DNA of 58,461 bases, taken from a virus. Of the stretch, positions 1-58,461 are shown piece after piece (position 1 is the stretch's first letter; each line of letters starts with the position of its first letter). Location of the stretch: IMG/VR virus record IMGVR_UViG_3300033417_000009; one strand, 5' to 3'. The notes under the pieces were generated by a model, which saw only the letters and a list, made by a program, of their open reading frames with translations, made no database searches and was not told where the DNA came from. The position numbers and the translations under genes were made by a program.

Positions 1-127
1 CAACCACCCCGCCGCTCATACTAGAAAGCTGCTTCTGGATGTCCTGGCCCAGCTTTTTCTCCCGCACACGGTAAGCGAGCACACAAAGCTGTCGTGCCTC
101 TTTGTAGTATTTGAGGGCCAAGTCTGC
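1..127. repeat. 127-bp terminal direct repeat, identical to 58335..58461 (circular-closure overlap of the contig)
   Basis: Read directly: caaccaccccgccgctcatactagaaagc...gagggccaagtctgc occurs at both ends with no mismatch. Confidence 0.97.
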
Positions 128-54514: not shown

Positions 54515-54829
54515 CTAGTGCTCTACCGCCCTCGTCAGCAGGGAGAATACACCATCCGGGTCACGGATTACCACTGCTCCAAACAGGGCGTCACGGGCCA
54601 CGGTACGGCGCACCCCGCTGGCTTTTATCGTGCGCGTGTCAGGTACGTAGTGCTCCATCACCAGGCCTTCCCCATCTTCGGTGAACCCAACCGGGCACAG
54701 GTAGCCGGGTATCTGTCTCACTTGCCACCGTGTGTCAGGGTAGAAGCGCTCTGCCAACAGCTTCACGGCAAGTGGCAACCCTTCATACCACCCGCATAGA
54801 TCAAGGTAATCAGCAACGGTCATTTCCAT
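54515..54829 (-). CDS. Hypothetical protein (104 aa)
   Basis: It is coupled to the TerL nuclease ORF (ATGA overlap). Confidence 0.55.
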   Translation of the reverse strand: MEMTVADYLDLCGWYEGLPLAVKLLAERFYPDTRWQVRQIPGYLCPVGFTEDGEGLVMEHYVPDTRTIKASGVRRTVARDALFGAVVIRDPDGVFSLLTRAVEH

Positions 54830-55698
54830 TATGTGCTCATCCAGCTTACGCCAGGGCGCGTCCCCTGTGACGGTTCATACACCGGGCGCGGACGAGGAAA
54901 CCGCACAAGGAACTTGGGATCATTCATTCGGCTCATCACATCCAGCATATCGTCGAAGCGGGAGCCGGGGTAACGGCACCACTCTTGCGTGATGAAATCC
55001 TTCACCAACCGCGCTTGCCCCGCGTCCCGGCCCTGCGTTTCCGGGTTGGGAAGCCACAGCCGCCCTGCTGTGCCTATGGAAATGAGCGTCCTGATACGGT
55101 CAGGTTTTGACACATTATGCCACTCCCCTTTGCGCCCCAGCTCCTCGATATGGAAACGGTAGTTCTCCCGTTCCATCTTCTCGCGCAGGGCAGATGTATC
55201 ACTCATCAACCCATATTCTTCATAGCCTACCCCAACCGGGCGCCACTTACGGTGCAAACGGAACAGTGCTTCGGCCCGCTCCGGCGGCGTCAACCGCTCC
55301 CGCAGCATCTCCAGCCAGTAGTAGTTCCCGTCAGCGTGTGTGCCGAAAACCCACATGGCCGTGAAGTCGTGCTTCTTCTCCCGGCCTAGCGCCGGGTCAC
55401 ACAAGAGGTACACGTTCATGTCCGGCGTCTTCACTTCCTCGTAAAAATTGAGGGGCACGTTCGCAAACCAGTAGCCGCCAGCGATAGACGGGCGTTGCTG
55501 GTAACTGGACTCCCACACTTCCGGGTCAGCTTTCTTCAAGGCATACAGTTCAGTGCAACTCCAGCGCTCTGGCCAAAGCGGCTCCCCGTGTGCAATCAGC
55601 TCCCCAGTGTTGGGGTCGCGGAAGCCGCACTTACACTCAGCCGACCGCCACCCTTCATCACAGGTGGCTTCAGCAGAAAGTCTAACGACCTGCCACAC
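54829..55698 (-). CDS. terL: Terminase large subunit, nuclease-domain fragment (289 aa from GTG 55698)
   Basis: WQVVRLSAEA...GEPLWPERWSCTELYALKK...SYQQRP...LLCDPALGREKKHDFTAMWVFG...VGYEEYG...DDMLDVMSRM are RNase-H-like TerL nuclease motifs. GGAG lies 9 nt before the GTG. The track start at 55887 (TTG) adds 63 codons that are not protein-like. Confidence 0.75.
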   Translation of the reverse strand: MWQVVRLSAEATCDEGWRSAECKCGFRDPNTGELIAHGEPLWPERWSCTELYALKKADPEVWESSYQQRPSIAGGYWFANVPLNFYEEVKTPDMNVYLLCDPALGREKKHDFTAMWVFGTHADGNYYWLEMLRERLTPPERAEALFRLHRKWRPVGVGYEEYGLMSDTSALREKMERENYRFHIEELGRKGEWHNVSKPDRIRTLISIGTAGRLWLPNPETQGRDAGQARLVKDFITQEWCRYPGSRFDDMLDVMSRMNDPKFLVRFPRPRPVYEPSQGTRPGVSWMST

Positions 55699-55921
55699 CT
55701 GCGGGATCTCCTGTCTCTGCCCGTTCGCGCAACGTTCGCGCCGTTGCTTTCTCGAAGCAAGGGTCACAATACGTGACCGTGGGTAGGTGGCATACCGGCT
55801 TCGTGCAACGTACGCTCTCAAACTGCGGCAAGCTGCACGCCAAGCACTTGTAGTGGTAGTGCCCGGCGCGGGGTTTCGGCGTATCAATTTGCGGCGCTTG
55901 CGGCGCTTGCGATTCGTTCAT
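55682..55921 (-). CDS. Cys-rich 79-aa ORF inserted between the TerL ATPase and nuclease fragments
   Basis: AGGAG lies 6 nt before the ATG. HYHYKCLACSLPQFESVRCTKPVCHLPTVTYCDPCFEKA has three Cys pairs. It is in the third frame and overlaps both TerL fragments. Confidence 0.55.
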   Translation of the reverse strand: MNESQAPQAPQIDTPKPRAGHYHYKCLACSLPQFESVRCTKPVCHLPTVTYCDPCFEKATARTLRERAETGDPAGVAGR

Positions 55922-57569
55922 CGTCGTCTCCTATATCATCTTTGTACTCACAATCGCGCATGTAATCCCACGCTCCATCTTCCTGCGCCCGCCACCCAAC
56001 GAAATCGTTTGGCGTCCACCGAGTTGTGTTCACCAGAATTGACGCATTCGGCTCAAGTCGCGTGCGTACGACGCTGTTGTACACGTCGTGAATGCTCTCA
56101 ATCACAGTCTCGCTTGTGGCTTCCTGACGGTTTTTGTGGGGATCGTCGATGACACAATTTCCGACGAAGATTGACTCAACGCAGAAGCAATGATCGCCTT
56201 CCACCTCAAGGTCATAGACCGGCGCAACGCCGCATTCTTCGACTTGTGAAATCGCATGTGACAGGGTTGGCACAGGACGGCGAGATTCTCGAGGTCGTCG
56301 TTGCGTTTGTTCTCGTCCATGTGGTGTACACCTAGCTTCCCCTTCGTGCCACACTCGAAGCATATCCTGTACTTTTTGCGCAGCGCTGGCGAAATACGCT
56401 TTTTGAAGCGCCGTAGGTAGTAACGGACCCACGCGCCGTCCCGGTAGTTTGGGTTTTTCTTGCCCATCATCAGCACCGAATGTGCCGCGTTCTTGCAGAC
56501 TACGGAACAAAACGAGGTCGTGGAAGAATGCGGGTTGAACGTTACCTTGCACACCGGGCAGACAACCGGCCGAAGCGTACGCCGCATGATCCCACCACAC
56601 GCTGGAGAACAGCACTTGTGCGTTTTCGTACGCGGCACAAACGGTTTCTTGCAGCAAGCGCATCGCTGCTTTCGCTTTTCGCGCTCCTTGCGCATGGACA
56701 TGCTGTAAAACTTGCCGAAACAACTCCTGGTGCAGAAGTAATGAGGGCGTTTCTTGGGATACCACTTTGGGACAAATGTCTCTTTGCACCAGTGACAGGT
56801 CAGTTCCATACACGCGATCTCCTCTCCGCAACGAGCCCGCTTGGCGCAAGCCGGTTTCGGCCAGAATATCGTGGTTGGCAGTAAGCAGCAATGAGTGAGA
56901 GCCAAAGCTGGTGCGCACCACCGAGCGCTTGCCATTGCAGCGCGTTGCACGCACCCTGCGCCAGCCAAACGGGGTGGCTACCTCCGCGCCCACAGTCACG
57001 TGTTCGATGGGAACCCACCCCTGTGCAGTGAGTACCCGCTGGCCTTCCGCAATGCACAGATTCGCCCCCAGCCCGTTGATCGTCCCGTCGAAGCCGCTAG
57101 CAAAAAAGCGACCGCCCGCTTGCAACGTGAACTCGTCTGCCGCCCGCGATTGTTTCGCAACCGCTGCGTGCGGGAACAGTTCCAGGTACATCTCACTGCG
57201 CATCATGTCACGGATGCGTCGGCCGAAAGCCCGTGCCAGCTTCTTGCCGTAACAAAGCAAAATCACAGTGTCCGCCGGGTTATGGCCAAAGTAAAAGGGG
57301 ATCAAGTTCACCGTGCCCCCCTCGGACTTTGAGTGCCTGAAGGGCATCGTCACCATCGTGCGTTTGAACTTCTGGTCTTTCAACGTGACGGCTTCGTAAA
57401 TGGGTGTCAGGATCTGTTGCTGGAAGTAGGTATATTTGTAGGTCGGGTTCATCGCCAAGTAAAACGCGCCATAGTTGTGGCGTATATCGTCCAGGTTTAC
57501 CATCTCTGGGTCAGCCCGCAGTTCGGGCAGTAAGCGCCATGCATCGCCGAGATTTTGAACAAGAACCAC
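55884..57569 (-). CDS. terL: Terminase large subunit, ATPase-domain fragment, interrupted by a 300-codon intein (start uncertain, 57569 GTG or 57503 ATG)
   Basis: Walker A-like TMPFRHSKSEG. Walker B is split as GLGANL/[intein]/CVIDDP. The coupling motif is NTTRWTPNDFVGW. The ORF stops before any nuclease motif. Confidence 0.8.
   Translation of the reverse strand: MVLVQNLGDAWRLLPELRADPEMVNLDDIRHNYGAFYLAMNPTYKYTYFQQQILTPIYEAVTLKDQKFKRTMVTMPFRHSKSEGGTVNLIPFYFGHNPADTVILLCYGKKLARAFGRRIRDMMRSEMYLELFPHAAVAKQSRAADEFTLQAGGRFFASGFDGTINGLGANLCIAEGQRVLTAQGWVPIEHVTVGAEVATPFGWRRVRATRCNGKRSVVRTSFGSHSLLLTANHDILAETGLRQAGSLRRGDRVYGTDLSLVQRDICPKVVSQETPSLLLHQELFRQVLQHVHAQGARKAKAAMRLLQETVCAAYENAQVLFSSVWWDHAAYASAGCLPGVQGNVQPAFFHDLVLFRSLQERGTFGADDGQEKPKLPGRRVGPLLPTALQKAYFASAAQKVQDMLRVWHEGEARCTPHGREQTQRRPRESRRPVPTLSHAISQVEECGVAPVYDLEVEGDHCFCVESIFVGNCVIDDPHKNRQEATSETVIESIHDVYNSVVRTRLEPNASILVNTTRWTPNDFVGWRAQEDGAWDYMRDCEYKDDIGDDDERIASAASAAN
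56102..56809 (-). CDS. HNH endonuclease with three CxxC...C..C Zn-finger repeats, nested in the intein in a different reading frame
   Basis: GGAGAGGAG lies 9 nt before ATG 56809. MELTCHWCKETF..FCTRSC / CACCKKPF..CCSPAC / CPVCKVTF..FCSVVC, then CFECGTKGKLGVHHMDENKRNDDLENLAVLCQPCHMRFH (HNH core, about 56246-56362). Confidence 0.75.
   Translation of the reverse strand: MELTCHWCKETFVPKWYPKKRPHYFCTRSCFGKFYSMSMRKEREKRKQRCACCKKPFVPRTKTHKCCSPACGGIMRRTLRPVVCPVCKVTFNPHSSTTSFCSVVCKNAAHSVLMMGKKNPNYRDGAWVRYYLRRFKKRISPALRKKYRICFECGTKGKLGVHHMDENKRNDDLENLAVLCQPCHMRFHKSKNAALRRSMTLRWKAIIASALSQSSSEIVSSTIPTKTVRKPQARL
56157..57056 (-). mobile_element. Intein (Hint splicing domain) in the TerL Walker B region
   Basis: Block A is CIAEGQRVL (Cys1 codon 57056-57054). 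Block B is LLLTANHDIL. Blocks F/G are VYDLEVEGDHCFCVESIFVGN, followed by the +1 Cys (56156-56154). The central 189 codons carry no endonuclease motif in this frame. Confidence 0.8.
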
Positions 57570-58241: not shown

Positions 58242-58461
58242 CTTCCTTGCCCTCCTTTGGGGTTACATTCCGTGGTACTTGTGGGGGCGCGGGCTGCCCC
58301 ATCTTGTACGTGCGCGTCCGTTCCTGGATTGCTGCAACCACCCCGCCGCTCATACTAGAAAGCTGCTTCTGGATGTCCTGGCCCAGCTTTTTCTCCCGCA
58401 CACGGTAAGCGAGCACACAAAGCTGTCGTGCCTCTTTGTAGTATTTGAGGGCCAAGTCTGC
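58219..58461 (-). CDS. 3-prime part of the junction-spanning 133-aa gene (see 1..286)
   Basis: The frame is continuous with 286..128 once the duplicated 127 bp is collapsed. The track's TTG start at 58455 is an artefact of the contig end. Confidence 0.6.
   Translation of the reverse strand, partial: ADLALKYYKEARQLCVLAYRVREKKLGQDIQKQLSSMSGGVVAAIQERTRTYKMGQPAPPQVPRNVTPKEGKEDGERDAS
58335..58461. repeat. 127-bp terminal direct repeat, identical to 1..127
   Basis: Read directly. Confidence 0.97.

Follow-up and report, generated by a model that had tools for sequence, protein, structure and literature searches.

The virus genome analysed here (IMG/VR record IMGVR_UViG_3300033417_000009; 58,461 nt, hereafter the window) encodes its large terminase (TerL) in two pieces. 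The ATPase motifs are found on an upstream open reading frame (ORF), TerL-N, and the nuclease domain on a downstream one, TerL-C. The two ORFs lie on the minus strand in differing frames, and each has a start codon and a Shine-Dalgarno (SD) sequence. TerL is universally taken to be a single ATPase-nuclease chain (PMC7824862); here, as in about 20 relatives, the ATPase and nuclease parts are on separate ORFs. Comparison with related loci suggests that this large terminase is likely a case of genes-in-pieces, made as two translationally coupled chains, and that the cut is an insertion site for small genes, one of which lies between the two halves in the window.

TerL-N occupies positions 55884..57503 of the minus strand, on which all the genes of this locus are found. 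It carries Walker A, Walker B and motif III (TRW), and holds the segments MPFRHSKS, NLCVIDDPHK (after splicing of an intein) and NTTRW, all of which align with the relatives. The ORF stops at a TGA (55886-55884), 35 residues past ...NTTRWTPNDFVGW, with a tail reading EDGAWDYMRDCEYKDD.... An earlier sequence-only reading of the window had placed this end correctly. Its start, GTG 57569, is less likely than ATG 57503, the call of the Joint Genome Institute (JGI), which gives a protein of 539 aa and overlaps the stop of the preceding gene by 7 nt; we take ATG 57503 as the most likely start. TerL-C (54829..55698, 289 aa) starts with a GTG at 55698, 9 nt after a GGAG (55708..55711), and opens with (M)WQVVRLSAEA...GEPLWPERW. 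Between the two is a Cys/His-rich gene of 79 aa (55682..55921), whose ATG at 55921 follows an AGGAG (55928..55932) by 6 nt and whose product contains HYHYKCLAC...RCTKPVC...YCDPC. This small ORF overlaps the 3′ end of TerL-N by 38 nt and the 5′ end of TerL-C by 17 nt. Relative to the ATPase frame, the offsets of TerL-N, the small ORF and TerL-C are 0, +1 and +2, i.e. each step is a +1 frame change. The coordinates, start signals, overlaps and frames of the small ORF and of TerL-C, as well as the Cys pairs of the former (CLAC, CTKPVC and CDPC), agree with those given by the sequence-only reading. The genome has one copy of TerL-N and one of TerL-C, and no intact TerL was found elsewhere in it. 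A scan of the junction for promoter- or terminator-like sites found none, which we count in favour of TerL-N and TerL-C being co-transcribed. A 9-nt tandem repeat (GCAAGCGCC, about 2.4 copies) is located at 55880-55902, where TerL-N (tail residues ASAASAA) and the beginning of the small ORF (QAPQAPQ) overlap.

The cut falls within the ATPase domain, after motif III and before the last strand and the lid. The sequence-only reading was right about a TerL in pieces, but had put the cut at the boundary between ATPase and nuclease. The Pfam profile Terminase_6N matches a full-length relative (P0036) over profile positions 4-182 of 215, beyond the site equivalent to the split, and an N fragment (P0053) over positions 4-154 only. 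The scores of these profiles are modest: 17.8 bits for Terminase_6N on a close N-fragment homologue, under the cut-off of 22, and 23.0-23.6 bits for Terminase_6C against a cut-off of 22.6. In an AlphaFold2 (AF2) model of TerL-C (pLDDT, the predicted local distance difference test, 85.7), the RNase H-like fold begins at about residue 84 and is preceded by the predicted WQVV strand, loops and two helices spanning LWPERW...YQQRP. TerL-N thus holds all the catalytic ATPase motifs, and TerL-C, which also bears about 80-95 residues of the ATPase domain, adds the next strand, the lid and the nuclease. Full-length relatives have just some 12-15 residues between ...TRWHEDDLAGW and W-x-V-x-x-L-P-A.

A Foldseek search with the TerL-C model retrieved the TerL of PhiV-1 (8dgc_E, E = 3.6e-8) and the terminase nucleases of T4 gp17, G20c, human cytomegalovirus (HCMV) and E217, with E-values from 3.6e-8 to 3e-5 for 8dgc_E, T4 gp17 and the G20c nuclease; TerL-C matches these three from about residue 84. 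The acidic residues D101, E160/E161, D250 and D253 of TerL-C are invariant. In a profile search, the nearest solved relatives were PhiV-1 TerL and T7 gp19; a PDB search with the TerL of one relative (L017) as a single sequence gave no match, and the profile search alone succeeded. TerL-C also has a variable Cys-rich insertion right after DEGWRSA (about 55650-55590 in the window, residues ~17-37). The window has a short form, ECKCGFRDPNTGELIAH; among the relatives (P0003, P0007, P0012 and P0014), some have a full zinc ribbon of 40-50 aa (C-x-C-G...C-x2-C...C-x2-C) and others have none.

The split is a trait of a whole clade. We searched 5.8 billion proteins with TerL-C. The 19 closest homologues (43-61% identity) were all 272-325 aa long and all started with M-W-x-V-x-x-L, and more distant ones (<= 46% identity) were mostly full-length terminases of 420-503 aa. 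The ATPase fragment, with the intein spliced from the query, had 18 homologues (49-67% identity), mostly of 223-250 aa. The contigs of 13 such proteins and 160 loci from metagenome and viral collections were then classed with hidden Markov models (HMMs) of both halves. The two ORFs abut, through ATGA, TGATG or an overlap of 20-35 nt, in L003, L004, L007, L009, L013, L019, L171, L172 and L174. One or more small ORFs are inserted between them in the window, L006, L011, L018, L173 and L008. The halves are fused in one ORF in L010 (also represented by L090 and L091) and L017. In two further split loci, L014 and L015, no ATPase was found within 750-950 nt upstream of the C fragment. Every C ORF has a start codon of its own. 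An SD sequence is visible before it in the window, L003 and L004, as GGAGGA 6-7 nt before the ATG in the latter two, and a weaker one in L008. L014 (1-750) and L015 (1-950) belong to the most divergent split subgroup (the P0020 group), and their C fragment starts at the same residue. Their upstream ORFs are not ATPase-like; therefore, the halves are either non-adjacent or separated by extra genes spanning at least 0.75-0.95 kb.

The N fragments all share a conserved C-terminal tail, GWRxxEDGxxDYxxxxxYxD, which is lacking in more distant TerLs. The fused L010 and L017 retain this tail in frame as a linker (...EDGGWDVQQNRPYTDGQSKPSDKRGLWDVIRLRA and ...QDGAWDYIKNIPYTRDDMSHDPNNSRKWKIVHLMA, respectively). 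In a neighbour-joining tree of the C fragment, the split forms all fall in one clade and the two fused forms are nested within it. The simplest history is a single ancestral split followed by two re-fusions. At an ATGA overlap, a single-base insertion or deletion suffices for re-fusion. At its N terminus, the fused TerL of L010 has about 75 additional aa (L010 2192-2420) that TerL-N of the window lacks. The clade consists of metagenomic phages with P22-type portals and a T7/PhiV-1-like TerL. A DNA search of INPHARED with 3.5 kb around the locus gave no match, and tblastn gave distant terminases only (<= 29% identity).

The corresponding junctions of L006 (86 aa, BLASTP E = 1e-8) and L011 (65 aa, followed by a 42-aa hydrophobic ORF) contain homologues of the 79-aa ORF. 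In all three, H21, H23, C26, C29, C39, C44, C52 and C55 are invariant, giving the common ligand pattern H-x-H-x2-C-x2-C...C-x4-C...C-x2-C; F34, S36, R38, L46, P47 and D53 are invariant as well. Given the eight conserved ligands, the product is probably a two-zinc mini-protein. The synonymous sites of the small ORF are saturated; its ratio of nonsynonymous to synonymous substitution rates (dN/dS), 0.27-0.42, shows purifying selection, so that it is not simply decaying. An HMM of the three sequences detected no further copy in 170 loci or in the rest of the window, phmmer, run exhaustively on 1.84 billion representatives, returned the L011 ORF only, and a word-indexed protein search returned nothing. 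No Pfam family reached its cut-off; the best, Rhodanese_C, scored 16 bits where 26.9 are required. Because it is conserved at the junction in L006 and L011 and absent from the wider searches, we regard it as a real gene of very narrow distribution.

The other junction inserts are of different kinds. L018 has a Cys-rich ORF of 62 aa without detectable homology to the 79-aa family, the 77-aa ORF of L008 has no Cys motif, and L173 (157-273) has a 38-aa ORF, MSYCDECGHAYFWSMSDAEENNHFCSKECEEKAARCGK, with the pattern CDEC-x16-FCSKEC. Inserts are thus Cys-rich in five of six cases (the window, L006, L011, L018 and L173). No junction ORF scored above the cut-offs of Pfam and PHROGs (window, L008 and L015) or of Pfam (L006, L011, L018 and L173). 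A search for repeats around the insert that might be target-site duplications gave short chance matches only.

TerL-N is interrupted at the Walker B site by an intein of 300 aa (56157..57056), which runs from CIAEG to FVGN, is followed by Cys and has Pfam Hint/Intein matches. A gene for an HNH endonuclease (56102..56809; Pfam HNH 5.6e-5, PHROG HNH families) is nested in it, in the +1 frame and with its own SD sequence (GGAGAGGAG). Over the 235 HNH codons, the intein/extein frame has no stop codon, against about nine expected (P about 5e-5 by synonymous resampling). The fused L010 (57% identity in TerL-C) shows the same intein with an out-of-frame HNH gene, at L010 3099-3761. A different intein, ending in ...VVHN|T right after the P-loop (FRHSK), occupies another site in TerL-N of L004 (1-900). 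Out-of-frame Endo VII-like endonucleases, antisense LAGLIDADG/VSR endonucleases and in-frame HNH endonucleases have been described in inteins (Gosselin, Arsenault & Gogarten, bioRxiv 10.1101/2025.01.02.630785). The TerL-N intein shares with these non-canonical inteins an endonuclease out of frame and an open intein frame, but the out-of-frame gene is here an HNH gene. It appears to be a further variant of such inteins, and bears on the intein rather than on the split. Upstream of TerL-N, the minus strand has two ORFs rich in CxxC pairs, of 130 aa (57889-57497) and 153 aa (58241-57780), and the stop of the former overlaps the TerL-N start. Neither had a Pfam or PHROG match, and no recognisable small terminase was seen.

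Several other explanations of the split were weighed. That indel errors of the assembly produced the frame breaks, or that the terminase is degenerating in a defective element, is barely credible, even though the contig is a metagenome assembly without reads and the two frame changes lie within 240 nt. Another JGI sample (3300033407) yielded a contig of 58,397 nt that matches the window with 100% identity along 7.1 kb, junction included. This contig is a circularly permuted form of the same sequence and reveals a terminal direct repeat of 127 nt in the window (1-127 and 58335-58461); because of this overlap, the window represents a complete circular genome of about 58.3 kb. About 20 divergent contigs (JGI, ENA and Logan) have the same break point, and its presence in so many independent contigs, together with retention of the small ORF in two, makes a pattern beyond chance. 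The catalytic motifs are invariant in both halves, and the in-between frame codes for a conserved protein. On these sequences, an assembly error is an unlikely cause of the break. Joining of the two halves into a full-length TerL by programmed frameshifting, translational bypassing, a group I intron or a split intein is very doubtful. The nuclease frame is at +2 from the ATPase frame alike in the window, L003 and L004 and is open over the entire junction in the window and L006, and terL genes split by introns (PMC12880540) or carrying bypass inserts (PMC10732093) are on record. However, Rfam revealed no intron or other RNA family at the junction at E <= 10, and the junction RNA fold was unremarkable compared with shuffled sequences (z = -0.78). 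The ORF spacing is zero or negative in most relatives, where an intron, an intein or a translational bypass could therefore not be accommodated. TerL-C starts with extein-homologous residues (M-W-x-V), so no C-terminal intein fragment (IntC) precedes it, and the N tail of 25-35 aa is in frame in the fused relatives and is therefore not an N-terminal one (IntN). A group I intron and a split intein were rejected on these grounds. In the junction sequences that were read, we saw neither an XXXYYYZ heptamer nor matched take-off and landing codons. The independent start codons and SD sequences of the C ORFs, stops in the nuclease frame within the inserts of L008, L011, L018 and L173, and the lack of an adjacent ATPase half in L014 and L015 also argue against recoding. 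The evidence speaks against the sequencing errors, introns, frameshifts and in-frame insertion domain of TerL that the sequence-only reading had named as possible refutations of its claim.

According to another explanation, a free-standing homing endonuclease invaded the TerL loop and split the gene, the Cys-rich ORFs are decayed remnants of its zinc fingers, and the abutting relatives have lost it. This is unlikely. In its favour are the active-looking HNH elements within the same gene, the Cys-rich nature of five of the six junction inserts, and the 38-aa ORF of L173, whose spacing CxxC-x16-FCxxxC is that of the first finger of the window HNH protein (E = 0.05). Some junction ORFs, such as that of L173, may indeed derive from DNA-binding modules of homing endonucleases. 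The window ORF itself, however, gave only E = 2.1 by BLASTP against the HNH protein and no HMM match, so that the kinship with its zinc fingers suggested by the sequence-only reading was not borne out. It has no nuclease motif and no relatives in Pfam, PHROGs or our library, and it is under purifying selection. The inserts represent at least four unrelated families, which is more readily explained by repeated insertion than by one relic. A homing endonuclease as the intervening ORF was also rejected as a candidate: the 79-aa ORF has no matches, and most relatives have no intervening ORF. Since the cut falls at the same residue in these relatives although no gene lies there, the small ORF cannot be held to be the cause of the split. 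We consider it quite improbable that the cut is itself functional, and more than just tolerated, in a multi-chain motor, in which small zinc-binding proteins would be third subunits that clamp or regulate the halves. Such a cut could serve to uncouple or regulate the communication between ATPase and nuclease, or to break a TerL surface seen by bacterial sensors of the Avs type.

The two-chain terminase that we favour would be made from adjacent, co-transcribed and translationally coupled genes. After splicing of the intein, TerL-N would provide the P-loop ATPase core through motif III and the clade-specific acidic/aromatic tail. TerL-C would begin at the next beta-strand of the ATPase fold and continue with the lid (LWPER...YQQxP) and the RNase H-like nuclease. 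The active enzyme may then form by non-covalent complementation of the two fragments within the ATPase domain. The break lies in a loop peculiar to the clade (EDGxWDYxxxxPYxD...), which appears to tolerate cutting and is continuous in the two re-fused relatives. The split would be ancestral to the clade, and the break would later have become an insertion site for small genes. In the window and two relatives, the inserted gene is predicted to yield a protein of 65-86 aa with eight conserved Cys/His residues, translated from its own SD sequence. The sequences themselves establish the split, its conservation, the coupling signals and the retention of the small ORF; the assembly of the two chains and any role of the small protein are presumed.

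Some points weigh against the two-chain terminase. In domain studies of T4 gp17, ATPase and nuclease domains expressed apart reportedly fail to package DNA in trans. Since no stop interrupts the nuclease frame over the junction of the window and of L006, a rare frameshift fusion is formally conceivable. The neighbour-joining tree has no support values and would thus also allow repeated independent splits. As for the small ORF, its codon statistics are only weakly better than those of the other frames (GC content at third codon positions 0.70 vs 0.57), and its AF2 model is uninformative (pLDDT 51).

TerL is a hallmark gene of tailed phages and is used for phylogeny, annotation and models of the packaging motor. 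The split clade and its re-fused cousins would offer a natural system for the study of communication among ATPase core, lid and nuclease. They would also be a warning for annotation, since half-length terminases need not be pseudogenes, and the TerL junction would illustrate how an essential gene can serve as a landing pad for small genes. The nearest solved terminases by profile and fold, T7 gp19 and PhiV-1 TerL (PDB 4BIJ and 8DGC), share the RNase H-like nuclease and arrange their ATPase motifs in the same order. Unlike the present TerL, they are single chains and lack the EDGxWDY...PYxD linker at which this clade is cut.

Genes-in-pieces are known from T4-like phages, namely nrdA-a/nrdA-b of Aeh1, split by mobE, the T4 topoisomerase genes 39/60 and split gp43 DNA polymerases. 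Common to these and to the present TerL are an essential enzyme gene cut within a domain, two ORFs on the same strand, a presumed non-covalent reassembly, the occurrence of intact and split versions among relatives, and extra genes that may occupy the gap. As in Aeh1, a gene that is contiguous in homologues is here found as two same-strand ORFs, both conserved. In contrast, it is the large terminase that is affected here, the whole clade shows the split, there is usually no gene between the halves, and the inserted ORF cannot be recognised as a homing endonuclease, unlike that of nrdA/mobE. In the literature searched, split terL genes are due only to introns and inteins, as in the Jug gut jumbo phages (PMC12880540), or to inserts with a proposed bypass. 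These and crAss-like terL genes share with the window a terL in several ORFs and a clustering of mobile elements in terL, including an intein. There, however, RNA or protein splicing restores one polypeptide, whereas the break here shows neither a ribozyme nor an intein signature and mostly lacks a spacer. The terminases of phiHau3 and StrepC.1 contain 10-nt UUA frame-disrupting inserts, for which bypass has been proposed (PMC10732093). They resemble the present case in having a terminase coding sequence in differently framed pieces in an otherwise functional phage. They differ in that the downstream pieces here have their own SD sequence and start codon, with gaps ranging from -35 nt to more than 900 nt. 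Our literature search, which was incomplete in coverage so that a prior description is possible, found no report of a TerL split at the protein level. What appears to be new here is that genes-in-pieces, known for other enzymes, would extend to a protein thought to be invariably a single chain.

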